Origin: a virus
Direction: 5' to 3' (one strand)
Length of the DNA: 32,566 nucleotides
UHGV virus genome: UHGV-0085244
Below the pieces are notes generated by a model that saw nothing but the letters and a program-made list of their open reading frames with translations, did not search any database and had not been told where the DNA came from. Position 1 is the first letter of the stretch, and each line of letters opens with the position of its first letter. A program made the position numbers and the translations under genes. Below are positions 1,543 through 32,437 of the stretch, piece by piece.

Positions 1543-2024
1543 GACAGCAGCCCTCCCACCGTTTTACTGATATCGCTTAAGGCAGACGTTGCCGTATCCT
1601 GCAAATTATTCAGCTGCGCACTGAGATCACCGAACATATCGGACAGGGATTCATCCACCCGTTTGAGCGACAGGGTGAACTCAATCCGGCGCGGCATACC
1701 GTCGCGGAAAAACTCCGTTTTAGTCTGATTCAGTCCCTCAATCACATACATGCCGTAAATCGTGCCGCTGCCTTCAATCAGGGGCCATGCTTTCCCCTGT
1801 TCTGCCATCTGCTCCAGTGCCAGCAACGACAGCCTGCCGCCTGTTATCTCCGGCATAAGAACGCCAGAAAGCGTCAGCATGTCGTTATCCGGTCCCAGAA
1901 ACTGCGTTGACGGGCGTCGGTTAACCCGGCTGTTAGCCGCATGTCTCCAGCTGCGCTGATACTGCAGCTCCTGATACGGAACGGTGCGCAGCATAAACAC
2001 GTACAATCCCAGCACCATCATCAT
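1539..2024 (-). CDS. U: Tail protein U
   Basis: 161-aa ORF starting MMMVLGLYVFMLRTVPYQELQYQR, as I recall for P2 gpU; synteny. Confidence 0.9.
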   Translation of the reverse strand: MMMVLGLYVFMLRTVPYQELQYQRSWRHAANSRVNRRPSTQFLGPDNDMLTLSGVLMPEITGGRLSLLALEQMAEQGKAWPLIEGSGTIYGMYVIEGLNQTKTEFFRDGMPRRIEFTLSLKRVDESLSDMFGDLSAQLNNLQDTATSALSDISKTVGGLLS

Positions 2025-5000
2025 GCGTCGTATCCCCCCTGATCGCTGTAGTTACTCCTGGCTTTTGCCTTCAGCCTGCGTTCACGTTCATCAAGCTGGC
2101 GGGCCACCTCCCGCGCAATATCCTGCGCACTTTGTCCTGGCTGCGTCTGAATGATGATCTGCGTCGGTGCCTCAATCCGTTGAACGAGCGGCACAGTGGC
2201 TGCGCGACTCACAATTGCTTCTCCACCTTTCGCGGGAAGTGCCAAGGGGTGCAACGGTGGAAGCTCTGCTGGCGCGGCAGCAACGCCCATCATTCCGGCA
2301 ACAACGGCAGCCAGTGCAGCTGTATTTCTCCGGCTGGTCACATTTGCCGGGCCGTTAACAATTTCCGGCCCGTTTTCACCGACGATGCCAAACTGCCCAC
2401 GCGGGATATAGCCGCCGCTGTCATACATCCCCGCAAAGCCATATCCCCATGACGGAAAACCACCCGATGGCATCATCACTTTACCGTCTGCATTCACCGT
2501 CGCAGGTTGCTGACGCGTCACGCTTTCCGGCAGTTTCGCCTTTGCAGCCTCTTTACTGACAATGCCGAGTTTATCCAGCAACCAGGAAACGCCAGATTTC
2601 AGGGAGTCCAGCGGATGCATAACCATATTCAGCCCTTCCGCCAGTGCCTCCCCGAATCGTCGCCCCATTGCCGCTGCGCTCTGCAGTTCGGCAGAGGTCG
2701 ACTTAACGGGCGTCAGCAGATCAGTAAACCAGCCCCACAGCGCCTGCACTTTGTCACCAATCCACTGGAACACAGGCTTAAGCGGTTCGAACGCTGCACT
2801 GATGGGACCTGCCGCCGCTTTGAATCCTTCCACCACGCCACCGAGAAATGCGGTGATGGGTTGCCAGTATTTCCAGACAACCAGTGCCACACCCGCCAGT
2901 GCAGTAACCACAAGACCTATCGGACTGAGCAAAGCACCTAACAGACCAGATACGGCATACAGGGCAACGCGCAACATCGCCAGTGGACCAGATGCCAGTA
3001 CTCGCAGCACCGTGCCTGCGGCAGCCAGCCCGCCGCGCAGTACCGCCAGAGGATTCATAAACATCACAGCAACAGCACGTAAAGCGGATAATCCAGACCG
3101 CAATAGTGCAACCGGCGCACCTGCTACAGTTTTCAGGACATTTCCCGTCAGTGATGCCGTACGGCGCAAAGACGACAACGGCGCAGTAAGTAAACCCGCT
3201 GCGTTACCCGATGAAGCAAGCCCGCGTCGCAGCACTGCCAGTGGAGCGCCAGCCAGCCAGGACAACGCGCTGCTGGTTCGTGTTACTGCTGCCATAACGG
3301 AAGGTAACGTTTTGATGCCCAGCACAGAGAATCCCAGACGGATGACTGCCAGCGGCCCCAGCACTGCAGCCAGCGCCACAGCCAGGGTGCCGAGGCCTAC
3401 GGTAACCGCAGCCACAATAGCGGCTACTTTCATCAGTGTGCCCGTCAGTTCCGGGTTAGCTTCCACCCAGCGACGCAACGCTCCCGTAACGCTTTTCACC
3501 GTGTACAGAATATCCATCAGCGGCTGGCGCAGCGTTTCGCCCAGGCTGCTGAAGGTATTCTGCGCTCCGGTTTTAACCAGCAACCACTGAGCAGAAAGTG
3601 AGTCCTTGTTGATGTCGGATTCTTTCTGCATGGAACCGAGCGCATCATTGCCCGCTGTCAGTTTTAGCTGGCGCTGCAGTTCCGGAAGGTTGTTTGCCAG
3701 TTTCGCCGCGTCATCACCAAACTCTTTACCAAACAACATGGTCATGGCAGACAGACGCTTGTCCTGCGGCAGTGCGTTCACCTTCTCCAGCACACGCTGG
3801 ATAGTTCCCATCGCATCCTTCGTCATCTGCTTTTCAATCACTTCAGGATTGAGTTTCAGCAGATTCATCCCTTCAAAGAAACTCTTGCTTTGCATGGTGG
3901 CAATGGACAATTCACGCACCATCGCGTTTGCTGCACTGGCTGCAACCTCCGGCGCAGCGCCCAGTGTCAGAAAGGTGGACCCCAGTGCCGCCGCTTTACG
4001 ATAATCCAGACGGTCAGCCACACCGCCCAGACGTTGCATCACATCAATGATGTCCGCCCCTTTCGACATGGCGTTATCATCCAGATAGTTCAGCGCATCG
4101 CCGAGCTGTTCAATATTGCGGGTAGGTATTTTGTAGAGCTGGGCGATTTTCCCCAGACTTTCTGACAGTTCATCCGCTGGCAGCTCAAAGGCTGTTGCCG
4201 CCTTTGCTGCCGTACTGGCGAAGGCCAGCAGGTCACGTTTCTGGTCTTCCCAGCTGTCGTCAGGGTTTGCGACGTTCATGCGCGCACCACCTTCAACCAG
4301 TGCAGCGAAGTCCACCGCACCGTTTTCCATCGGCAACTGTTCGCTGGCAGCCTTGATGGCATCCTGCATTTCATAAAAACGTGCAGTGCGGTTGCCATTA
4401 TCGTCACGCAGACCATTGACCTGCTTTGCCACACCTTTCATGGCATCTTCCATGCTGGTATAGCTTTTTACTGCCGCCATCACTGGCGCACCCATTGCCA
4501 GCCCTGCAGCCGTGGTGGTGGCTCCGGCACCTGCAATACGATCACGCACCTCCAGCGAACGGGCATAACTGGCACGCGCTGCATTCATCCTGCGCTGAGC
4601 TTCCCCCAGTCGCTTCAGCCGTGCCTCCTGTTTCGAAAGTTCCTGGTTATAACGTGATGTTTCACGGGCTAAACGGGCAGTTGCTCCCGCATCGTCTTTC
4701 GCAGAAATTCCCGCCCGGTACAGTTCAGCACGCACAAGCGCCGTCTGCTGCTGCAGCTTTTTCTGGCGTTCTTCCAGGCGCTGAACAGCCAGCCGTTGAC
4801 GGCCCAGAGCAACAACCTGACGTTGCGAAGGCGGCCCCATCGTTCCCAGTTCCTGACTGAGCAAATTTGCACGCTGGCGGGCATAGTTCAGCCTGTCGCC
4901 TAATTTCTGATTTTCTGCCTGCAGCTTTCGGAAGCTGTCCAGACTGCTCCCGGCCTGATCAAGCTGCTTTATTGCATCGCGGGATTTTTTGACAGCAGCA

Positions 5001-5098
5001 GCCAGTTCTCTTGAACTGGCCTGCGCAGATCGAAATGGGCGGGTGAGCTTGTCAACCGCATTAAGAATGACCTGCAGGCGCAGGTTATTATCACTCAT
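2021..5098 (-). CDS. T: Tail tape-measure protein
   Basis: 1025-aa ORF, coiled-coil N-terminal part, Ala/Leu/Gly-rich repeated central part; sits between E/E' and U as in P2. Confidence 0.9.
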   Translation of the reverse strand: MSDNNLRLQVILNAVDKLTRPFRSAQASSRELAAAVKKSRDAIKQLDQAGSSLDSFRKLQAENQKLGDRLNYARQRANLLSQELGTMGPPSQRQVVALGRQRLAVQRLEERQKKLQQQTALVRAELYRAGISAKDDAGATARLARETSRYNQELSKQEARLKRLGEAQRRMNAARASYARSLEVRDRIAGAGATTTAAGLAMGAPVMAAVKSYTSMEDAMKGVAKQVNGLRDDNGNRTARFYEMQDAIKAASEQLPMENGAVDFAALVEGGARMNVANPDDSWEDQKRDLLAFASTAAKAATAFELPADELSESLGKIAQLYKIPTRNIEQLGDALNYLDDNAMSKGADIIDVMQRLGGVADRLDYRKAAALGSTFLTLGAAPEVAASAANAMVRELSIATMQSKSFFEGMNLLKLNPEVIEKQMTKDAMGTIQRVLEKVNALPQDKRLSAMTMLFGKEFGDDAAKLANNLPELQRQLKLTAGNDALGSMQKESDINKDSLSAQWLLVKTGAQNTFSSLGETLRQPLMDILYTVKSVTGALRRWVEANPELTGTLMKVAAIVAAVTVGLGTLAVALAAVLGPLAVIRLGFSVLGIKTLPSVMAAVTRTSSALSWLAGAPLAVLRRGLASSGNAAGLLTAPLSSLRRTASLTGNVLKTVAGAPVALLRSGLSALRAVAVMFMNPLAVLRGGLAAAGTVLRVLASGPLAMLRVALYAVSGLLGALLSPIGLVVTALAGVALVVWKYWQPITAFLGGVVEGFKAAAGPISAAFEPLKPVFQWIGDKVQALWGWFTDLLTPVKSTSAELQSAAAMGRRFGEALAEGLNMVMHPLDSLKSGVSWLLDKLGIVSKEAAKAKLPESVTRQQPATVNADGKVMMPSGGFPSWGYGFAGMYDSGGYIPRGQFGIVGENGPEIVNGPANVTSRRNTAALAAVVAGMMGVAAAPAELPPLHPLALPAKGGEAIVSRAATVPLVQRIEAPTQIIIQTQPGQSAQDIAREVARQLDERERRLKAKARSNYSDQGGYDA

Positions 5099-5527
5099 CG
5101 TTGGCCCCGCTTCTCTGAATCGCTTTATACCGCCATTCCAGCACTTCGGTCAGCGGCATAACGTCAGTAACGGATGGCGGCCAGTGAAAGATGGTGGCGA
5201 TATCAGCCACCAGATCGTCAACCGTCAGGCTGTCGGTAAACCGGCAAGCACCGACTTCTTCAACAAAAAAGTGACAACCTCAACCGACATGGCAGTGAGA
5301 TCTGCCGGGTCCATCTCTGCAATTTCCTGTGCAGTCAGTGCCGGACTGGAGATGCGGGGGATCACGGTCATCATCGCGTTCACATCCATATCCATAATGG
5401 CCTGCAGGCGTGTACCGCGCAGCGCACCGGACTGCGGTTTACGCAGCACAATTTCGGTGATTTCTGTTTTACCGCGCATGATGGGGGTATCCAGTTGAAT
5501 GGTCTTTTCAGTCTGTTTATCGCTCAT
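5091..5527 (-). CDS. Tail assembly chaperone E+E' made by programmed -1 ribosomal frameshift
   Basis: Slippery TTTTTTG on the minus strand (plus-strand 5265-5271); the -1 frame reads on as VEEVGACRFTDSLTVDDLVADIATIFHWPPSVTDVMPLTEVLEWRYKAIQRSGANDE with no stop for 57 codons, ending at a TGA (5091-5093) that overlaps the T start. Confidence 0.75.
5225..5527 (-). CDS. E: Tail assembly chaperone E (zero-frame product)
   Basis: 100-aa ORF directly upstream of T, ATG start; contains an in-frame T_TTT_TTG slippery heptamer. Confidence 0.85.
   Translation of the reverse strand: MSDKQTEKTIQLDTPIMRGKTEITEIVLRKPQSGALRGTRLQAIMDMDVNAMMTVIPRISSPALTAQEIAEMDPADLTAMSVEVVTFLLKKSVLAGLPTA
5265..5271 (-). other. 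Slippery heptanucleotide for the E/E' -1 frameshift
   Basis: Minus-strand ACT TTT TTG in the E reading frame. Confidence 0.75.
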
Positions 5528-5581
5528 TTTGTTGTCCTGTCAATTGGGTTCTGGCGCGGTATCCCGCGCCGTTCAGATATA

Positions 5582-6097
5582 TCAGAGGCCGAGGGCGTTG
5601 CGGTGCGCTTCCATCAGGTCCACACCGTCCACAATTTCCACCATGTTGATAAGGTCCACTTCATAGAGCACCTCACCATTGATGGTCAGCTTCGCGTAGC
5701 TGTTGGTACTGGTCACTTTGGTGGTGTTGCTTTCGCCCGTCTTCCACTCGCCGGAATCCACTTCTTTGTGACGTCCACGCACGACAAGCTCCACGGCCTG
5801 CACTTCCCCGGTATCGTCACGCTGGATAGAGCCGGTAAAGCGCAGCTGGATGCCATCCACCGTGGATTTGCCCATCTGCTTAAACAGCAGCAGTTCAGTA
5901 CCACCAATGGAAAATTCTGTATCCAGTGCACTGTCATCCAGTCCCAGATCCACATCCACTGCACCCGGCATTCCGCCGCCGCGATACTTCTCATATTTGC
6001 GGGTAAATTTCGGCAGCGTCAGCGACTCAACGATCCCCTGCCAGTTGTTCCCGTCGTTAAACAGGTTCAGGTGTTTTAATTTGCGTGGTAAAGCCAT
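5582..6097 (-). CDS. FII: Tail tube protein
   Basis: 171-aa ORF, P2 FII-like; synteny after the sheath gene. Confidence 0.9.
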   Translation of the reverse strand: MALPRKLKHLNLFNDGNNWQGIVESLTLPKFTRKYEKYRGGGMPGAVDVDLGLDDSALDTEFSIGGTELLLFKQMGKSTVDGIQLRFTGSIQRDDTGEVQAVELVVRGRHKEVDSGEWKTGESNTTKVTSTNSYAKLTINGEVLYEVDLINMVEIVDGVDLMEAHRNALGL

Positions 6098-6106
6098 GTT
6101 GTCCCC

Positions 6107-7279
6107 TTACGCGCTGACCTGGCTGGCGAAATTCACCAGGTACTGATCGGTGATGCGCTGACGCAGCATCAGGTTTTCAAGTGGCGGCACTGGCGTGTAG
6201 TCGTAGTCGATGGTGAGTTTTCCGGCTTTCAGCGTGTCTTTGTCGTTCACCGACTCATCCAGCCAGCAATCACCACCAATGAGATAGCCCTGACTGACCA
6301 GGCTGCGCATTTTGGCGCGGATACCTTCGATAATGTCGCGGGCCAGCGACGGGTTAAGCGGTTTATCCACCGCCCACATGTGTGCTTCTGCCATCGTGTC
6401 CATCAGCACCTGCGCCGTGCGGGTGTAGTTTTCGAAGGCAAAGAGCGGGTCATCACTCAGGCAGCGGGAACCCCAGAAGCGGAAACCGTCTTTACGCACA
6501 AGCGTGGTGACGTCGTTCTGGTTCAGCAGACCTGCATCGGTTGCCGGGTCCTGCAGATCCCAGAACACATCTGCAGAAATTCCGGTGACACCGTTCACGC
6601 CCACGTTGGACAGGCTTTTGTGCCATCCGGTCTGCTCGTCAATTTTGGCGCGCAGACCAAGCGCACGGGCGGTGGCATATGCCGTTGCTTCGGCATTCAG
6701 CACCGTGTCCCAGCCAGTAAAGTCAGGCCAGATCAGCATCCCTTCGCGCTGGCTGAAGTTTTCGCGGTAAGTGATCGCCTCCTGCACTGTCTTGCAGCCA
6801 TACGCTGACAGGTAAGCAAATCCACGCAGGCTTTGCGCCACGCTCAGCAACTCAGTAGCTACCGCCTTGGTATCGTGGCCTGGCACGCCGAGAATGCGCG
6901 GTTTAACGCCGAGCTGTGACTGGGCAGATAACAGGGCTTTCATACCTGTTTTTTTACCTTCAGCAGTCACTGCTCCGATGATATTGGTCGTGGTTTCTTC
7001 TTCCGTTTCACCCTGCGGCACACGCACAACAACGGTCACGGGTTTTGCCTGGTCAGCGATGGCATCCAGCGAACGAGCCAGCGTGCCTGACTCACCCGCT
7101 TTACCGCTGGCAGTCAGCACATCAGTGATCAGCACGGGTTTATTAAGAGGAAACATTTTTGCATCGGCATCATCGCCCGTGCAGACCATACCCACGATGG
7201 CGGTGCTCACCGTGGTAATGGATCGGGTGCCTTCGTTGACTTCAACAACGCGCACCCCGTGGTGGTAATCCTGAGCCAT
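6107..7279 (-). CDS. FI: Contractile tail sheath protein
   Basis: 390-aa ORF, P2 FI-like sheath; synteny. Confidence 0.9.
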
Positions 7280-7355
7280 AGTGGCGAACCTCCTGATTGG
7301 ATTAGGCTTCGCCCTATGTTGAAGTGATTGTGCCTGACAAACAGCTAAGCGCAGT

Positions 7356-7373
7356 TGTACCGTTATTCACACA
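7356..7373. promoter_or_regulatory. Candidate Ogr-binding dyad (TGT-N12-ACA) of the late FI operon promoter
   Basis: TGTACCGTTATTCACACA about 85 bp upstream of the FI start codon. Confidence 0.55.
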
Positions 7374-7421
7374 AAATGACGGTATTTGTCTGCTTTCAGG
7401 GATAATCAAAATAAAGCTGAT

Positions 7422-7988
7422 TCAGGGAGATTTATTGTTCTTATTTGCCGGAAATTTTCGATAAATGGTAGAAACGCCTACATCAAAAATCAGTGCAATA
7501 CGCTGTCTTGATTCTCCGGCCTCGAGTAAACGCCCAATCTGTGCCCACTGTTCGCTGGTCAACTTAGGACGGCGTCCACCTACTCTGCCTTTAGCACGAG
7601 CTGCAGCCAGCCCCGCCCTGGTACGTTCAACTATCAGTTCGCGTTCCATTTCAGCCAGGGCACCCATGACATGAAAAAAGAAACGGCCCATTGGGGTGCT
7701 GGTATCAATACTGTCAGTCAGGCTTCGGAAATTCACGCCACGCTGGCGCAGCTCTTCTATCAGCGTAACAAGATGCCGCATACTGCGCCCCAGTCTGTCC
7801 AGCTTCCAGACAACCAGCGTGTCTCCTGCCGATAGTGTCCTGAGCAGCTTTTTCAGCCCCGGTCTGTCGGACTTGGTGCCACTGATTTTATCCTCAAAAA
7901 TCCGCTCACATCCCGCACAGTTCAGTGCATTGCGTTGCAAATCGGTGTTCTGGTCATTTGTTGACACGCGTACATAGCCAATAAGCAT
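7422..7988 (-). CDS. Serine-recombinase DNA invertase (Hin/Gin/Cin/Pin family)
   Basis: N-terminus MLIGYVRVSTNDQ with catalytic-Ser context, C-terminal HTH; start placed at the ATG 6 nt after a GGGGG RBS (track ORF 7422..7994). Confidence 0.9.
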   Translation of the reverse strand: MLIGYVRVSTNDQNTDLQRNALNCAGCERIFEDKISGTKSDRPGLKKLLRTLSAGDTLVVWKLDRLGRSMRHLVTLIEELRQRGVNFRSLTDSIDTSTPMGRFFFHVMGALAEMERELIVERTRAGLAAARAKGRVGGRRPKLTSEQWAQIGRLLEAGESRQRIALIFDVGVSTIYRKFPANKNNKSP

Positions 7989-8043
7989 GATCATCCCCCT
8001 GAATAAAAACCGGAGATGATGCCAGTTAGCCGTTATCTCTGCA

Positions 8044-8068
8044 TTTTCATAAACGTTGGTTTGGGAGA
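8044..8068. repeat. Invertase crossover site (hix/gix-like), invertase-proximal
   Basis: TTTTCATAAACGTTGGTTTGGGAGA; inverted-repeat partner at 9592-9616. Confidence 0.7.
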
Positions 8069-8405
8069 GGGAGCAAAATTAGGCGCAGCGGTGTGTGTGA
8101 CCGGCTCTACAGGCTATATGACTATCCCGGCAATGGTCGCCGGGAAAGAACGGGTGATCATATTGCAGTGGTTTGATGCCTCTACAAGTGGTTATGCGAC
8201 ACCAGTAACTGCGAATTTCCCTATTGCATTCCCAAATGAGTGCATGATTCCGTTATTTAGTGATGTATCAACTGGGGCTGCTGATTTGAGTTCTACAACT
8301 GCATATAATTTGGCTGTTGGTAGAACGTATTACACTGGTATGACAAAAACTCAAATTACATGTGCTGGCTACGGTGGCTTTAGAGTTTTCGCGATTGGAT
8401 GGTGA
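8069..8405 (+). other. Silent alternative tail-fibre C-terminal cassette (Sv'-like), expressed only after inversion
   Basis: Part of ORF 8016..8405; shares ILQW and FPIAFPN motifs with the C-terminus of H; no plausible promoter or start of its own. Confidence 0.65.
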
Positions 8406-8410
8406 TTAAT

Positions 8411-8830
8411 ATGTTTTATTCTGCAAAAGAAAATGCGTTCTACGCTGATGAGCTAAAAAGTATTTATGAAAATGCAGGTAGCTGGCCTGACGATGCCGTT
8501 GAAGTAGACTATTCCGTATTCGTTGAGTTTGCCGGAGAATCACCTAACGGAAAATTACGCGCTCCTAATTCTGATGGTTTACCTGAATGGATAGATATTC
8601 CCGAACCAACTGAAGAGGAAATTATTGCGTTGGCAGAAGCCGAAAAATCGCGACTGCGTGCTTCAGCTGACTCTGAAATAGAATGGCGGCAGGACGCCGT
8701 TGATGCGGGGATCGCGACGGAAGAAGAAACTGTTTCATTAGCCGAATGGAAAAAATACCGGGTGCTGCTGATGCGAGTTGATACAGCAGACCCGGACTGG
8801 CCTACTCCTCCGGCGACTCAGGCCAGTTGA
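8411..8830 (+). CDS. Alternative tail-fibre assembly chaperone (U'/G'-like), silent orientation
   Basis: [16 protein letters not shown]... parallels the minus-strand assembly protein [18 protein letters not shown]...; starts 6 nt after the Sv' stop. Confidence 0.75.
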
Positions 8831-9233
8831 TATCTGGTGCGCTGGATATGTCCACAGATTCCAGCGCATCGAGATAATCCAGCCACTCGTTATACTGGGC
8901 CTTCTCGTCGTCTGTAAGTCGTCCCAGCGCAGCTTTACCCGGCCACTGCTTGCTGTTTATATACTCATTAGCCTGATCGATACGATACTGTTTTTCAGCT
9001 TCAGCTGCTGCGATTTCCTCCTCATGGCTTAAAGGTGGAATGTCTACCCATGCCGGCATTCCATCCTCAGTAGCTCCACGAGTTTTACCCTCTGGTGGCA
9101 TCCCCGAATATTCAGTGAATGTCTCATCTGAGACGGCTATGAGATCGTCAGGCCAGTTTCTACTCGCTTCATAAACATCTCTGAGCTCATCAGGGTAGAA
9201 AGCGTTATTTAATGCTGAATAAAAATAAGCCAT
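8802..9233 (-). CDS. G: Tail-fibre assembly chaperone (currently expressed)
   Basis: 143-aa ORF directly downstream of H, P2 gpG-like. Confidence 0.85.
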
Positions 9234-21898: not shown

Positions 21899-21932
21899 GT
21901 TTAAACTGGCTGTCGAAACAGCCAGTTTAAAC
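21899..21932. other. Perfect 15-bp-stem hairpin (4-nt loop) between convergent Q and the cargo operon; possible bidirectional terminator
   Basis: GTTTAAACTGGCTGT-CGAA-ACAGCCAGTTTAAAC; no flanking U-tract on either strand. Confidence 0.5.
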
Positions 21933-22775
21933 ACCGGCACCAATGAAATCGCCATATGAATCTTCTTCAAGGCTGATGTATTCCACCCTCCATTGATCCA
22001 TCCGCCTCAATGCATACAGGGAGAAATGAGTATCGGCAACAGCAATGCACGTATTCAATTCTATAAGCTCTGAATGTCCCAAGATTGGATCACCATAAAA
22101 CTTATAAAACAATGCCTTTAGATCAGAACAGGTTTGTTCAGCCGCCCCTCTGGCATCGGGGCCACCTTCAGTTGCATCATAAACAACATTGATAGAAAGC
22201 TCATATGGTATGCCTTCCTCAAGATCGTTAAATCTTTCTTCGCCCAAATCGAAAAAAACTCCGATCAAATGCTCTGCGTTTGTGGCGATAATGTCCGCAA
22301 CTTCTTTTTCGAAAATAAACTTTTTATCCTCGTCGTAAGCCCGCAAGCGCTCTTCAAACGAGTTAGGAAACGCTGGACGACCATACTTAGCTGCTAACCA
22401 TTGCTTAAGAGCTTGTTTCTCTTCTGTGCTAATGGAGAATGCCGGATCGTTTTCCTCACAACGGAAAGCTTCTTTAGAAATGATGACTTTTCTTTCATGC
22501 CGAAGCTCTACTGCGTTCTTCTTAGCACTTTCTGGGTTTTCAAAGCATAGATCGAGGATTCTCGGATGCTTAGCTCTTTTCATCTTGCTTGACCCCTTTT
22601 TCAAGGGGCCAAACATCAGTTCCACGTTTTTTTCAGAATTACTCTGTAAATCACAATCATGCGTTATAACTACAACTTTATGGTTCGTTTCATCAGGCTT
22701 CAGAAGTCCAAGTGAAACGGCATCATCATGTTTAAGAACATGCCCCTGACGCCATGATGTTCCTCGTACCAACAT
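21927..22775 (-). CDS. Hypothetical protein, third gene of the cargo operon; function unknown
   Basis: 282-aa ORF with ATG start 9 nt after the preceding stop; AT-rich; no P2/186 counterpart recognised. Confidence 0.7.
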   Translation of the reverse strand: MLVRGTSWRQGHVLKHDDAVSLGLLKPDETNHKVVVITHDCDLQSNSEKNVELMFGPLKKGSSKMKRAKHPRILDLCFENPESAKKNAVELRHERKVIISKEAFRCEENDPAFSISTEEKQALKQWLAAKYGRPAFPNSFEERLRAYDEDKKFIFEKEVADIIATNAEHLIGVFFDLGEERFNDLEEGIPYELSINVVYDATEGGPDARGAAEQTCSDLKALFYKFYGDPILGHSELIELNTCIAVADTHFSLYALRRMDQWRVEYISLEEDSYGDFIGAGV

Positions 22776-22784
22776 AAATGTGAT

Positions 22785-23447
22785 TTATTCCTCTACTGTT
22801 CTAGGAATTGAAATAGATGACTTCCAATCATCTGTCGGTTTCGCCTTGCTTGCTAAGTAATTGGTCGATTCAGCAGCTGCATTCATCGCTTTAGCTTCAT
22901 CAATCAGTACCTGAACTGGCTTGTTCCAATCCTCACCTTCTTTTATTAAGTCCATCAATGACCTACCATTGAATGCTTTCATTTTCACCAATAGCTTCGC
23001 ATCATTGAGTCCAGCTTTGGAAAAAGAGTCAGCAACATTACTGAGGTTGGTAATGAATTGGACTTTTGAAGCATCATCAGGCTGGTTCTCCCCTGACAAC
23101 CATTTATAGAGAGCCTGCCGAGTTATCCCCAAATCCTTAGCCAGTTCTGACATTGATGGAGACAGCACTTCTCGAATATTAGCCAAATGTTGGGCAACAT
23201 TCCTGACATCAACCTCAGGAGAAATTGCAGGCGTGTACGTTGACTCTATGGAATCAAATGCAAACTGAACCCTTGGCTGAACATACTGACGCCATTGCTT
23301 ATAAGCATTTACAGGGTATGAAGCCCCCGTACCAACTAATAGTAAAGATGCGGCGACAGCAACAACACCTGATACACATGAGCTTGACTGCGAATCTGGA
23401 GTATACCGATCTACAGAGCCTATGCTTCCAGTAGGAATTGCATACAT
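22785..23447 (-). CDS. XRE-family helix-turn-helix protein with N-terminal hydrophobic segment, second gene of the cargo operon
   Basis: HTH ...NVAQHLANIREVLSPSMSELAKDLGITRQALYKWLSGENQP; start placed at the ATG (MYAIPTG...) after a GGGGGTGA RBS; the track's longer form 22785..23555 would overlap the upstream gene by 89 nt; start uncertain. Confidence 0.65.
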   Translation of the reverse strand: MYAIPTGSIGSVDRYTPDSQSSSCVSGVVAVAASLLLVGTGASYPVNAYKQWRQYVQPRVQFAFDSIESTYTPAISPEVDVRNVAQHLANIREVLSPSMSELAKDLGITRQALYKWLSGENQPDDASKVQFITNLSNVADSFSKAGLNDAKLLVKMKAFNGRSLMDLIKEGEDWNKPVQVLIDEAKAMNAAAESTNYLASKAKPTDDWKSSISIPRTVEE

Positions 23448-23466
23448 TTTAGTCACCCCCGTTGTT

Positions 23467-24276
23467 TCAGTGCCATTTAGCACGGGCAAAATCTGAAACC
23501 ATGCCTTCAAATGCTTCTTTAACTTTACTATGCAACGAAAGAATCTGTTTTTCAATTAACTGCAAATCAGTTGACATGTTGCCTTCAACATAATGATCTG
23601 TATCAATTATTGCGTGCATACGATGTTCTGTATTACTAAATCTCGGCAGCGGCAGTAAACCATTAGGAATCATATCTGGCGGAAAACCTAGCTGACCATT
23701 CATCTTATGTATACGTGAAACCATAAATCCATTAGAGATCAGTGGCTCAACACATGTCTGATATACAGACTCTTGTATGGACTGTATTGGCGTCCATCCA
23801 AAATCAACACCATGAAGTTCCTTTACAAGATACTGCTCAATTGTTTCGCTTTTCTCAGGAAACACAGCATCCAAATATCGAAGCCCAATCCTGCTTACCA
23901 ACGATGGCTTAGCAAATTCAAGAACTTTGCTCAGACCAAGTATTAATGACGAGATGAAAGGTACATGATTATCATAATCTGTTGTATGGAACGTAATGAA
24001 ATCGTTGCCTAAAACAAAACCAGACCTTCTATCTGCATCAATCATCAACCAACTTGTCACAGGCTCAAATGAATGTACCGGTGGCTCATTGGGGTTTTTC
24101 ATTTCAAATTTCAGCTGAGTTGTATTGGAAACTTCAAATAAAGGAAATCCTTCAACTCTTAGCGCATCTTGTATGTCTGGAACATACTTACTCATTGCAG
24201 CTACTGGAGTAAACTTTACTTGCACCAATGCGTAGTAAACGGGCGCATTGGACATACGTTCGCTGTTAGTACTCAT
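23467..24276 (-). CDS. Hypothetical protein, first gene of the cargo operon; function unknown
   Basis: 269-aa ORF with AGGAGG RBS 5 nt before the ATG; N-terminus (SNAPVYYALVQVKF) faintly recalls an uncharacterised TIGR04255-type family, from memory and unverified. Confidence 0.7.
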   Translation of the reverse strand: MSTNSERMSNAPVYYALVQVKFTPVAAMSKYVPDIQDALRVEGFPLFEVSNTTQLKFEMKNPNEPPVHSFEPVTSWLMIDADRRSGFVLGNDFITFHTTDYDNHVPFISSLILGLSKVLEFAKPSLVSRIGLRYLDAVFPEKSETIEQYLVKELHGVDFGWTPIQSIQESVYQTCVEPLISNGFMVSRIHKMNGQLGFPPDMIPNGLLPLPRFSNTEHRMHAIIDTDHYVEGNMSTDLQLIEKQILSLHSKVKEAFEGMVSDFARAKWH

Positions 24277-30294: not shown

Positions 30295-30419
30295 GATGCA
30301 ACATTCCTCGTTTAATGATGATTAATCAGGACGAATACGGATCGTTTGTATTTTGTGAACACTATAAACATACGATCGCACAGTGAAATCGTCAAGATAA
30401 AAGTTCACTTGGAGTGACC
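30295..30419. promoter_or_regulatory. Divergent lysis/lysogeny promoter-operator region
   Basis: 125-bp AT-rich region between divergent Apl/Cox-like and CI-like genes; short inverted repeats (GTGAAC...GTTCAC, GATCGT...ACGATC). Confidence 0.45.
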
Positions 30420-30989
30420 ATGAATTTGGAGAAAGGCGGACGAGGCGCCATAGAGCGCATGGTAGAAGCTTATGGATTCAAGACTCGACAGGCGTTGTGC
30501 GATCATTTAGGAATCTCTAAAAGTACACTCGCCACACGCTACATGCGTGACTCATTCCCAGCAGAATGGGTAATCCAGTGCGCCCTTGAAACAGGCACCT
30601 CGCTTAATTGGCTCACAACCGGGCATGGTTCAAAGCAAACTTCAGGTAATACAAATACTATGGAAGTTGCTAAATATGTATTATCTGATGGGGCCTTGTG
30701 TGAAGACGGTTTTTATATTTTCGATAGAGAATTTCTACCGTCGGCATTCAAGAATCTTTTTGTAATCACAGATAATAATTCTGAATTTATTTGTGATAAG
30801 GAATTTGATGATATACGTGATGGTAAATGGGTAATAAGTATTGATGGCGAAATAACGATCCGTGACATTACTCGTTTACCCGGTGGAAGAATCTTCGTCG
30901 AGGGTGGAAACAGAGCCTTCGAATGTAAGATAGAAGACATTGAAATAATTGGTAAAATTATAAGTTTAACAGTCAAGTATGTTAAATAG
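30420..30989 (+). CDS. Immunity repressor (186 CI-like)
   Basis: About 190 aa with N-terminal HTH (QALCDHLGISKSTLATRYMRD); ATG at 30420 after GGAG (track start GTG at 30414); divergent from the early operon and co-directional with int. Confidence 0.7.
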   Translation: MNLEKGGRGAIERMVEAYGFKTRQALCDHLGISKSTLATRYMRDSFPAEWVIQCALETGTSLNWLTTGHGSKQTSGNTNTMEVAKYVLSDGALCEDGFYIFDREFLPSAFKNLFVITDNNSEFICDKEFDDIRDGKWVISIDGEITIRDITRLPGGRIFVEGGNRAFECKIEDIEIIGKIISLTVKYVK

Positions 30990-31004
30990 TACCGGGAGGA
31001 AATT

Positions 31005-31196
31005 ATGCTTGGTAAGGTATTTTTTGTGGTTTTGTCATGTTCTTTGTTATTAAACCCACTAGCTACCTATGCTAGAAATTATCCCTGCTCAGGGAAAAAG
31101 GGAGGTGTTTCTCACTGTACCTCTGATGGCAAATTCGTTTGCAATGATGGAACTATTAGTAAATCCAAAAAAATCTGTACTAAAAACTCACGATAA
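31005..31196 (+). CDS. Small secreted cysteine-rich peptide (signal peptide plus about 40-aa mature part with 4 Cys)
   Basis: GGGAGG RBS 6 nt before the ATG; [23 protein letters not shown] then [40 protein letters not shown]; AT-rich. Confidence 0.55.
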
Positions 31197-31384
31197 CTTT
31201 TGCTTTTATATCTGCGCCTAAAATAAAAATGAGCCACAGGTTAACCGCAAAAGTTACATGATCACATAGCAAAAAGAATAGCCTACTTCATTATGGCTTC
31301 AGTGAGATGTATGGTCGCAGGATTTCATACATTGACACTGGTTATACATACAGTAAAAATGCTCTCTATTGGAGGGCATTTTTT

Positions 31385-32437
31385 ATGGCTGTACGAAAAC
31401 TCACCACAGGAAAATGGCTTTGCGAATGTTACCCCGCCGGACGTAGTGGGCGTCGTGTGCGTAAACAATTCGCCACCAAAGGCGAAGCACTGGCTTTTGA
31501 GCGTCACACGATGGAAGAAACCGAAGCAAAGCCCTGGCTAGGTGAATCAGTGGATCGTCGAACACTGAAAGACGTGGTTGAGCTATGGTTCAAACTACAT
31601 GGTAAATCACTGACTGCTGGGCAGCATGTCTATGACAAATTGCTGCTGATGGTTGACGCTCTGGGCAATCCCCTTGCAACTGATCTAACCTCTAAAATGT
31701 TTGCCCACTATCGAGATAAACGCCTGACAGGTGAGATCTACTTCAGCGAGAAATGGAAGAAAGGAGCAAGCCCGGTCACCATTAACCTGGAGCAAAGCTA
31801 TCTAAGTAGTGTTTTTAGCGAACTATCCCGCTTGGGCGAATGGTCGTATCCGAACCCACTGGAGAACATGCGAAAATTCACCATCGCAGAAAAAGAGATG
31901 GCATGGCTTACCCATGAGCAGATTGTTGAATTACTGGCTGATTGCAAACGTCAGGACCCAATTCTGGCACTGGTAGTTAAGATATGCTTAAGCACAGGCG
32001 CACGCTGGCGAGAAGCCGTAAATCTTACTCGTTCACAGGTGACCAAATACCGAATTACCTTTGTAAGAACGAAGGGGAAGAAAAACAGAAGCATCCCTAT
32101 CAGTAAAGAGCTTTACGAAGAGATCATGGCGCTTGATGGGTTCAATTTCTTCACAGACTGCTATTTTCAATTTTTATCCGTGATGGAAAAAACGTCTATC
32201 GTGCTCCCTCGCGGTCAACTCACACACGTTCTGCGCCATACGTTTGCGGCGCACTTCATGATGTCGGGTGGAAACATTCTGGCCTTACAAAAAATTCTCG
32301 GACACCACGATATAAAAATGACTATGCGTTACGCACATCTGGCACCGGATCATCTGGAAACGGCGCTCCGTTTCAATCCTCTGGCAACGCTGCCAAGTGG
32401 CGACAAAGTGGCGACAGCGGTTGGCATTACCCCGTAA
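31385..32437 (+). CDS. int: Tyrosine integrase
   Basis: Start at MAVRKLTTGKW... with GGAGGG RBS (track ORF begins 31307); C-terminal HxxR...Y catalytic region (LRHTFAAHFMMSGG...MRYAHL). Confidence 0.9.
   Translation: MAVRKLTTGKWLCECYPAGRSGRRVRKQFATKGEALAFERHTMEETEAKPWLGESVDRRTLKDVVELWFKLHGKSLTAGQHVYDKLLLMVDALGNPLATDLTSKMFAHYRDKRLTGEIYFSEKWKKGASPVTINLEQSYLSSVFSELSRLGEWSYPNPLENMRKFTIAEKEMAWLTHEQIVELLADCKRQDPILALVVKICLSTGARWREAVNLTRSQVTKYRITFVRTKGKKNRSIPISKELYEEIMALDGFNFFTDCYFQFLSVMEKTSIVLPRGQLTHVLRHTFAAHFMMSGGNILALQKILGHHDIKMTMRYAHLAPDHLETALRFNPLATLPSGDKVATAVGITP

Follow-up and report, generated by a model that had tools for sequence, protein, structure and literature searches.

What does the short open reading frame between the repressor gene cI and the integrase gene int of a P2-like prophage encode, and what might its product do for a lysogen? 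We addressed this question for a stretch of 32,566 nucleotides from the virus genome UHGV-0085244 (hereafter, the window), whose gene content (gpA, dam, cII, apl, cI, and int, along with tail and capsid genes) is that of a P2/186-like prophage. The prophage is one of E. coli and adjoins rcdA in the RefSeq annotation. Beside cI, and divergently transcribed from it, lie genes for cII (CP76) and an apl-like protein. Their presence marks this part of the window as an immunity region, that of a 186-like phage within the P2 family. A reading made from the DNA letters alone (the original prediction) had proposed that the open reading frame encodes a small, secreted, cysteine-rich peptide, carried by the prophage as a lysogenic-conversion moron. 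This proposal is partly supported by our analysis: that the lysogenic operon holds a moron for a secreted product was largely right. The features of the locus are collected in Table 1.

Table 1. Features of the cI–int region, with positions counted along the window.
Feature	Position	Strand	Description and basis
cI repressor, 186 type	30420..30989	+	Upstream gene of the lysogenic operon; Pfam, RefSeq annotation of identical DNA
Shine-Dalgarno sequence GGGAGG	30994..30999	+	5 nt before the ATG; direct sequence reading
YdcA-family precursor, coding sequence	31005..31196	+	63 codons, ATG start, stop codon included in the positions; open reading frame list, family matches
Predicted Sec/SPase I signal peptide	31005..31073	+	Residues 1–23, cleavage after T-Y-A; feature analysis
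Mature basic peptide	31074..31193	+	40 aa, four invariant Cys; invariant columns, AlphaFold
AT-rich 3' part of the cargo insert	31197..31324	+	Boundaries from blastn against KP12 and ev129; stem at approximately 31194–31256 (RNA fold)
Conserved int leader	31325..31384	+	Part of the int module, not of the cargo; promoter scan, RNA fold, relatives
P2-type tyrosine integrase	31385..32437	+	Downstream gene; Int_N 3.2e-32, Phage_integrase 7.1e-22 (Pfam); RefSeq

The predicted frame of 63 residues and its strong GGGAGG ribosome-binding site were both confirmed. The frame starts 15 nt after the cI stop codon and ends 188 nt before int. The product of cI carries the domains Phage_CI_repr (PF07022, E = 2.8e-33) and Phage_CI_C (PF16452, E = 2.7e-27). 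Its longest open reading frame begins at a GTG at position 30414, and the RefSeq coding sequence begins at 30420. The gap between the 2 genes had been described as AT-rich, which holds: GC content is 0.35 over positions 30600–31300, compared with 0.46–0.52 in int.

Downstream of the open reading frame, homology to relatives with no cargo or another cargo (Escherichia phage ESSI2_ev129 and Klebsiella phage KP12; blastn) picks up again at the first nucleotide of the int leader. In this leader, a promoter scan found a promoter-like TTGACA (31332–31337) and AAAAAT (31355–31360) with a 17-nt spacer, and a 13-bp hairpin (31355–31383) holds the int Shine-Dalgarno sequence GGAGGG and ends in U6 directly before the int ATG. 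The layout is common to KP12, ev129, and Yersinia prophages. Together, the approximately 190 nt on the 3' side of the open reading frame, including the leader, are strongly structured (fold z = -5.2). Such structure would suit the view that the frame is non-functional, either a chance frame in an AT-rich spacer or part of an RNA or regulatory spacer for int, as would the disrupted copies seen in a few genomes (an IS5 insertion in locus L090 and an altered C-terminal tail in L088). The structured, conserved leader begins only at 31325, however, outside the frame, and neither an Rfam family nor a tRNA was matched in the region.

Moreover, the open reading frame is under strong purifying selection in its reading frame. 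Between the window and the copy in BL21, the 32-codon core differs by 8 synonymous and 0 non-synonymous changes, and across the core dN/dS is about 0–0.04. The signal peptide, with a dN/dS of about 1, diverges freely while its hydrophobicity is kept. Conservation as coding sequence extends to related prophages: against 3 Yersinia copies in the same cI–ydcA–int arrangement, pN is 0.075–0.095 and pS is 0.73–0.91, the latter being saturated. Selection, together with the family matches described below (NF007463 and 466 clusters), effectively refutes a non-functional frame, to which we assign next to no likelihood. The frame is a bona fide protein-coding cargo gene, or moron, between cI and int, and encodes a precursor of the YdcA family. 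We are highly confident that it is a real cargo gene with an exported product.

The family assignment follows from several resources. The protein scored 114.6 bits with NCBIfam NF007463 (PRK10040.1-2; E = 1.3e-33), for which 93 bits are the curated threshold, and matched PHROG 6000, a family of unassigned function (E = 3.1e-34). An identical protein, which represents a cluster of 355 members on at least 1,000 contigs, has a precomputed assignment to Pfam PF27300 (YdcA). In RefSeq, the protein is named “YdcA family protein” (WP_001513672.1) and is placed between “phage repressor protein CI” and “phage integrase”. A search of our local Pfam-A copy with the whole protein and with the trimmed core gave no significant family, PF27300 being newer than that copy. 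A permuted DUF3761, which the motif had suggested, was dropped, as no Pfam match appeared at E ≤ 1. Among the defence models of PADLOC-DB 2.0, no family matched the protein at E ≤ 0.1.

As the gene is already catalogued as YdcA (NF007463, PF27300, and PHROG 6000), it is not a new gene. The original prediction had missed its membership of a known family, the core paralogue ydcA in every E. coli, and the presence of the RefSeq-annotated gene in approximately 11% of complete E. coli genomes. The existence of the gene is thus not news, and its interest lies rather in how common it is, in the uncharacterized state of the family, in its links to Dis2, nucleases, and type VI secretion (T6SS), and in a homolog in Haemophilus phage HP2. 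In the literature searched, we found no mention of the likeness to Dis2, the nuclease fusions, the paralogs in T6SS clusters and on MOBQ plasmids, or the HP2 homolog.

The cargo DNA was found in 598 of 5,426 complete E. coli genomes (704 with a wider query), including BL21/B and HS, which places the gene among the commonest prophage cargo genes in this species. The integrase type is present in 1,137 E. coli genomes, so that roughly half of these prophages carry the cargo. Relatives are encoded on at least 534 IMG/VR contigs. Among 50,697 deposited phage genomes, megablast with the region gave no match, and tblastn found relatives only in phages of Moraxella, Acinetobacter, Haemophilus, and Pseudomonas. 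The gene is missing from all deposited coliphage genomes, despite being common in the prophages of E. coli. An exhaustive HMM search recovered 466 representative clusters (50% identity) at E ≤ 1e-3, mostly of 56–130 aa, and a scan of one genome per species found the family in 148 species, chiefly alpha-, beta-, and gammaproteobacteria.

Feature analysis bore out the predicted architecture of a signal peptide followed by a lysine- and cysteine-rich mature part with 4 cysteines. The signal peptide consists of M-L-G-K, with one lysine in the n-region, a hydrophobic stretch of 12 residues (10-residue Kyte-Doolittle mean 2.7), and NPLATYA, with threonine at position -3 and alanine at -1. Ala-23, at position -1, is invariant in 29 relatives. 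The signal peptides of these relatives span 18–32 residues (18–23 in all but 2) and have a mostly positive n-region (net charge 0 in 4 of them), a hydrophobic core, and mostly a small residue at -3. A fifth cysteine lies within the signal peptide and is unconserved. This residue, Cys-12, raised the option of a lipoprotein, but only 11 residues precede it, it falls midway along the h-region (V-L-S-C), and no lipobox L-[AS]-[GA]-C is conserved. The lipoprotein reading was rejected because Cys-12 is missing in most relatives, while the A-x-A-type cleavage site is conserved. The precursor is predicted to be exported by Sec and cleaved after Ala-23.

The mature part contains 7 lysines and 2 arginines against 2 aspartates, giving it a pI of 9.7, and the mature parts of other family members have a pI of 9.3–10. 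Its core follows the motif PCSG-KGG-V-x-H-C ... F-V-C-N-D-G-x-x-S-x-S-K-x-x-C, in which P27, C28, S29, K32, G33, G34, C38, F44, C46, D48, G49, S52, S54, K55, and C58 are invariant in 27–29 relatives. The AlphaFold model has a mean pLDDT of 77.6, rising to 81–89 over residues 31–60. From these features, we infer that the 40-mer would be oxidized in the periplasm to a compact, strongly cationic mini-domain with 2 disulfides.

The position of the gene gives a first indication of its role, as the interval between cI and int serves as a slot for varying cargo. No cargo is present in ev129, in 186, where cI and int abut, or in P2, where C and int are separated by a gap of 115 bp that is gene-free, as the original prediction had stated. 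In KP12, whose int is 97–98% identical, the slot holds a 558-aa PD-Lambda-1 defence protein (PADLOC, 7e-120). Other 186-like prophages of E. coli and Klebsiella carry a 61-aa YdcA paralog (61–67% identical) followed, after 12 nt, by a KAP-family NTPase that matches the PADLOC candidate system PDC-S20 (1e-171) and is PifA-like (3e-15). These prophages are found at a TetR-family-regulator/MFS locus that is seemingly equivalent to the rcdA site of the window. Haemophilus phage HP1 has 4 small open reading frames in the slot, and the Haemophilus phages HP2 and S2 have an unannotated 60-aa YdcA homolog and then a secreted protein of 254 aa. In HP2, the ATG of the homolog overlaps the cI stop codon (TAATG). 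In Vibrio phage K139, the slot holds orf2 and glo, and according to the record, Glo is a “periplasmic protein; involved in phage exclusion”.

In K139-like Vibrio prophages, the cI–int interval has already been reported to be a defence hotspot (Rousset et al. 2022, PMC9122126). For the P2 family, hotspots noted in the literature are cI–int and int-to-primase. Locus contexts of YdcA genes were taken from 80 loci retrieved out of the scan of one genome per species, and the cI–YdcA–int arrangement was found in 5 of them: Escherichia, a metagenome-assembled genome labelled Bacillota that carries the same prophage, and 3 Yersinia species. With the Yersinia prophages and HP2, homologs do occur in other prophage cI–int gaps. 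No conserved 2-gene module was apparent: in HP2, Mcat17, and the small plasmids described below, the genes that follow the YdcA gene encode secreted or membrane proteins that are not detectably homologous to each other. The sole exception among these downstream proteins was a weak match between Acinetobacter and Psychrobacter.

The gene had also been predicted to be transcribed in the lysogenic direction, and this agrees with what we found. It lies on the cI strand directly behind cI, and the records of 186 and K139 annotate the stretch from cI to int as a lysogenic operon driven by pL. No terminator-like site was predicted between cI and the open reading frame, so co-transcription with cI would be expected. 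Judging from this position, we consider it likely that the gene is expressed with cI from the lysogenic promoter and that the protein is made in the lysogen. The gene would sit in the operon that is on in every lysogen. As for the claim that the gene follows the pattern of lysogenic-conversion morons, it stands insofar as this is a cargo gene in a slot that holds defence or exclusion genes in relatives. As PD-Lambda-1, the KAP NTPase of PDC-S20, or Glo occupies the same slot in relatives, the role of the protein is probably protection of the lysogen at the envelope.

Its neighbors in kind differ from it in instructive ways. Defence cargo of P2-like hotspots (old/tin, PD-Lambda-1, and the PDC-S20/PifA-like KAP NTPase) shares the variable, AT-rich slot of the P2 family with the window gene. 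However, such cargo encodes NTPases and nucleases of the cytoplasm or membrane, for which defence models exist, whereas YdcA is a predicted periplasmic protein of 40 aa with no PADLOC model. Glo, which the literature counts among soluble periplasmic Sie proteins (PMC3952083), comes closer. Its gene, too, lies between cI and int, in the lysogenic operon of a member of the Peduoviridae. The protein itself begins with a signal peptide, and its annotation is that of a periplasmic exclusion protein. It is longer, however (137 aa), and its exclusion phenotype has been tested experimentally. Homology between the 2 proteins was rejected, as hhalign gave a probability of 5% and aligned the signal peptides alone. 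In functional terms, Glo is the best analog of the window protein.

Outside prophages, the family is found in several other contexts. Every E. coli has the core-genome paralog ydcA next to cybB and rydC, and this K-12 arrangement beside cytochrome b561 (cybB) accounted for 5 of the 80 loci. K-12 YdcA (b1419, PRK10040 group, PF27300) is a 57-aa protein with a signal sequence that is predicted to be periplasmic (10.1101/2024.02.12.579971). Like the window protein, it has a signal peptide followed by a four-cysteine core, PCSGxKGG(I/V)SHC..., and the 2 cores are 75% alike. Unlike the window gene, ydcA is a chromosomal core gene and not prophage cargo, and the signal peptides of the 2 proteins are unrelated. 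The window protein also belongs to the NF007463 subgroup and not to the K-12 equivalog NF007462, for which it scores 68.5 bits against a cut-off of 118. Two genes of the same name should be kept apart from this family: “ydcA” of plasmid pS88, an annotated adenine methylase, seemingly shares the name alone, as does, judging by the title of the report, “ydcA” of a gonococcal island.

Among the same 80 loci, a longer YdcA-domain paralog is encoded within the T6SS cluster of about 9 Enterobacteriaceae species, between tssE and tssA. In Kluyvera, the order is tssB, tssC, tssE, an unnamed gene, the YdcA-like gene, a gene for a T5orf172 protein, tssA, and vasL. The family gene also occurs on 58 plasmids, among them 5-gene plasmids of 3.9–5.4 kb from Acinetobacter (typed MOBQ) and Psychrobacter. 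On these Moraxellaceae plasmids, it lies near mobilization genes (MobA/MobL relaxase).

[quoted passage not shown] This score comes in part from the signal peptide, and with a core-only profile Dis2 was still first, at E = 0.03. Both repeats of Dis2 align with the YdcA core (C-x-K-x-GG-x-x-x-C ... G-x-h-V-C-N-x-G-x-x-S), and a second family member (P0155) matches Dis2 at 5e-4. Of 2 metagenomic Dis2-like proteins retrieved, one (P0080) has a precomputed PF27300 assignment. Aligned with this protein, the core profile reached E = 7.5e-5 (hhalign), and the window core matched its 2 lobes at 4e-5 and 2e-4 (BLASTP). A Foldseek search with the AlphaFold model ranked Dis2 first among 350,542 PDB chains, with 38% identity over 37 columns, at an E-value of just 0.5. 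Family members with tandem 2- and 3-fold repeats exist as well (P0082–P0086).

Dis2 is described as 2 lobes that are alike in sequence and structure, pinned by 5 disulfides, and located near the outer membrane (PMC8486379), and is present in 13 copies per Dot/Icm complex in the outer-membrane cap (PMC8486379; PMC9302130). We consider the YdcA core probably homologous to Dis2, with which the window protein would share the features of an exported, disulfide-pinned protein for the vicinity of the outer membrane. The window protein is not a Dis2 ortholog, however: it is a single free core with 4 cysteines rather than 2 lobes with 5 disulfides, and no T4SS is encoded beside its gene. The link suggests that Dis2 represents a duplicated form within a widespread family and not an invention of Legionella.

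A further clue came from longer family members. In a Pfam scan of 10 of these, 5 had a YdcA domain near the N-terminus, after a signal peptide, and a non-specific nuclease at the C-terminal end, with nucleases of 3 unrelated folds: Endonuclease_NS (2), SNase (2), and the PLD/Nuc type (1). A local phmmer search identified 8 clusters with nuclease fusions among the best 149. All of them are metagenomic and rare, with 1–3 members each. Some may be gene-calling fusions. One further protein (P0201), which by eye resembled an HNH nuclease fusion, was not counted, as a phmmer search of the PDB found nothing. The fusions provide a moderate link between the YdcA domain and nucleic acid. In keeping with its charge, the domain might bind DNA; in keeping with Dis2, it might instead hold enzymes at a site near the outer membrane. 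The occurrence of the family on small relaxase plasmids and in phages of Haemophilus, Moraxella, and Acinetobacter fits, circumstantially, a theme of DNA traffic across the envelope.

The reading we favor, at somewhat less than an even chance when taken as a whole, is that of a periplasmic factor made in the lysogen that excludes incoming DNA. The cationic 40-mer would be exported by Sec, disulfide-bonded, made together with cI, and active in the periplasm. There, the free domain would bind a polyanionic target or one near the outer membrane, which is the weakest step of the proposal; this target may be DNA during its passage, or else a conduit for DNA or for secretion, contacted on its periplasmic side. 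Once bound, the domain would hamper the entry of foreign DNA, be it that of a superinfecting phage, conjugative, or transforming DNA. The protein would then exclude DNA as a soluble factor of the periplasm, an analog of Glo from K139 with an unrelated sequence. That exclusion would work through binding of DNA or a conduit is in itself rather doubtful. Several findings count against the favored reading. Every E. coli already has a chromosomal YdcA, which weakens the case for a phage-specific function. The rare nuclease fusions would fit anchoring at the envelope as well as DNA binding. The low share of cI–ydcA–int among the species-representative loci (5 of 80) and the lack of a PADLOC model were also counted against it.

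One competing explanation retains the docking and drops the DNA. As an accessory or adaptor of an envelope machine, the protein would dock, much like Dis2, on the outer-membrane-proximal face of a periplasm-spanning complex (a T4SS, T6SS, secretin, or outer-membrane lipoprotein complex), and the prophage copy would modulate a machine or receptor of the host, for example by blocking a phage receptor or an attack by a T6SS or T4SS. The probable homology to a component of the Dot/Icm outer-membrane cap and the paralog in T6SS clusters both speak for such a role. However, the window, a P2-like prophage, holds no T4SS or other secretion-system genes, standalone single-lobe proteins do not have the second lobe of Dis2, and the nuclease fusions would be left unexplained unless the domain is simply an outer-membrane anchor. 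We regard this explanation as unlikely. The protein could instead be an extra, constitutive copy of a host periplasmic protein that helps against acid, organic-acid, or stationary-phase stress, that is, classical lysogenic conversion for fitness and not for defence. The closeness of the prophage core to K-12 YdcA would be in keeping with this, and so would what has been reported on the host gene. Deletion of ydcA in E. coli W leads to sensitivity to 300 mM 3-hydroxypropionate (PMC7642389), ydcA is induced at pH 5 in a YdcI-dependent manner according to a report cited there, and the intergenic region of rydC and ydcA, upstream of ydcA, contains a SELEX peak of the RpoS holoenzyme (PMC5493296). 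The sensitivity and the pH 5 induction point to stress physiology rather than exclusion and thereby count against the reading that we favor.

Stress tolerance is nevertheless improbable in our view. In the literature searched, 3-hydroxypropionate sensitivity was the only ydcA phenotype, from one study and with no mechanism, and none was found for the prophage copy; nor does stress tolerance account for the spread of the family on phages and small plasmids, in T6SS clusters, in nuclease fusions, and in a slot for defence genes. A small, strongly cationic, disulfide-stabilized peptide with a signal peptide also calls to mind an antimicrobial or bacteriocin-like peptide that is freed by lysis or in vesicles and harms competitors. 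Yet, no immunity, maturation, or export genes adjoin the open reading frame, a Sec signal alone leads only as far as the periplasm, all E. coli have a core-genome paralog, and a probable homolog of the domain serves a T4SS as a structural component, which makes a toxin highly improbable.

The probable homology to the “species-specific” T4SS subunit Dis2, the fusions to nucleases of 3 folds, and the defence slot provide concrete hypotheses on the prophage gene and likewise on ydcA, the orphan of K-12. A novel reading, which we put forward as an unlikely but far-reaching one, is that the YdcA/Dis2 domain would be a hitherto unrecognized extracytoplasmic module that binds DNA or docks on DNA conduits near the outer membrane, and that mobile elements deploy it to control DNA traffic in the periplasm. 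If so, the same module would occur on its own in the lysogenic operons of prophages and on small mobilizable plasmids, as a tandem pair in the Dot/Icm cap, and joined to nucleases that are periplasmic or secreted. The copy in the prophage would then represent a novel type of exclusion factor, soluble, periplasmic, and only 40 residues long. At this length, the mature peptide is short enough for chemical synthesis.

The segment between ydcA and int ends in a conserved int leader, in which a promoter scan detected a promoter-like site close to the consensus (TTGACA at 31332 and AAAAAT, separated by a spacer of 17 nt). The spacer of this site contains an inverted repeat, ACTG...CAGT. The leader also holds a 13-bp hairpin at 31355-31383, which includes the Shine-Dalgarno sequence of int, GGAGGG, and terminates in U6 immediately 5' of the int ATG. 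The 5' arm of this hairpin is overlapped by the -10 element of the promoter-like site, suggesting that the hairpin forms in RNA reading through from cI-ydcA and not in transcripts started locally. In the read-through RNA, the structure would lead to termination of transcription or to occlusion of the int ribosome-binding site, and transcripts starting at the putative local promoter would be free of it. The int leader was found to be arranged alike in Klebsiella phage KP12 and Escherichia phage ev129, neither of which carries ydcA between cI and int, and in Yersinia prophages.

Relatives of the prophage carry other cargo in the cI-int slot than that found in the window. In KP12, the slot contains a gene for PD-Lambda-1, which is labeled "chromosome segregation ATPase" in the record, while in 2 further loci, from E. 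coli and Klebsiella, a gene encoding a KAP-family NTPase lies directly 3' of a YdcA paralog in the same slot. Occasionally, the prophage ydcA itself was found to be disrupted, as in E. coli 730V1, where it is interrupted by an insertion element. In E. coli ECONIH4, the final 4 residues of the product, KNSR, are replaced by a tail of 12 residues, giving a protein of 71 aa in total that keeps the four-cysteine core whole. One copy appeared in an unexpected taxonomic setting: a 3-kb contig comprising cI-ydcA-int, from a metagenome-assembled genome labeled "Bacillota bacterium" (JAEWTL010000113.1), matches the E. coli prophage with 98% identity, and is almost certainly Enterobacteriaceae DNA that was mis-binned.

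Features of the window and of related loci, with their coordinates
Feature	Sequence	Coordinates	Strand	Remarks
Conserved int leader	Window	31325-31384		
PD-Lambda-1 in cI-int slot	L006 (Klebsiella phage KP12)	804-2480		
KAP-family NTPase	L174 (E. coli) and L178 (Klebsiella)	5198-6529		PADLOC PDC-S20, PifA-like
Disrupted ydcA	L090 (E. coli 730V1)	1556-2838		Truncated after codon 51 by IS5-family element (ISKpn26)
ydcA with changed 3' end	L088 (E. coli ECONIH4)	1556-1771		
T6SS cluster with embedded YdcA-domain paralog	L039 (Kluyvera sp.)	3092-9152		
Serine invertase	Window	7422-7994	minus	Resolvase + HTH_7
Tail-fiber C-terminal ORF	Window	8016-8405	plus	Adjoins serine invertase
Tail-fiber assembly gene	Window	8399-8830	plus	
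Tail-fiber assembly gene	Window	8802-9233	minus	Opposite orientation
Three ORFs (282, 256, 269 aa)	Window	21927-24276	minus	Between portal-side genes and gpA

YdcA-domain paralogs were also found embedded in T6SS clusters, in the order tssB-tssC-tssE-unknown gene-YdcA-like-T5orf172/MUG113 protein-tssA-vasL, followed by an OLD-family ATPase. Besides the Kluyvera locus, comparable loci were L037, L041, L048, L050, L063, L074, and L085. These paralogs are longer (107-146 aa), and consist of an N-terminal core, a linker rich in lysine, serine, and threonine, and a C-terminal tail containing cysteine.

A subfamily of approximately 100-160 aa (P0056-P0062, P0113, P0132, P0193, P0228, and others) carries a second, C-terminal cysteine-rich motif, C-x-C-x3-5-C-x-G-(P/K)-(R/K)-(G/N)-G-x-(Y/F)-C...G-x-K-x-Y, which was present in 9 of the best 149 clusters. 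In addition, rare metagenomic proteins combine a signal peptide and a YdcA domain with a non-specific nuclease of one of 3 unrelated folds: Endonuclease_NS (P0175, P0167, P0200, P0227, and P0156), SNase (P0119 and P0223), or PLDc_2 (P0183). P0201 may have an additional HNH-like tail, which was recognized by eye alone.

Two small plasmids, each with five genes, were found to include a YdcA gene. On the 3,916-bp pApiMCR53a of Acinetobacter pittii (L182), which was typed as MOBQ and mobilizable, this gene has a small "TraD" gene on one side and a membrane-protein gene on the other; on the 5,371-bp pA40P1 of Psychrobacter (L183), it is flanked by lipoprotein and membrane-protein genes. The latter plasmid is non-mobilizable according to PLSDB typing, yet contains a MobA/MobL gene. 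Such settings may be the reason why the E. coli prophage protein is labeled "Conjugal transfer protein" in UniRef.

Elsewhere in the window, the three ORFs next to gpA occupy the place of the classical old/tin defense hotspot of P2-like phages. A PADLOC search of these ORFs gave no significant match, with one marginal match to RmrA (E 7.7e-4), and the only Pfam matches were weak, HTH-type ones in the middle ORF, making the three genes candidates for uncharacterized cargo. The serine invertase and the adjacent tail-fiber genes (7422-9233) resemble invertible host-range segments such as G of Mu and C of P1.
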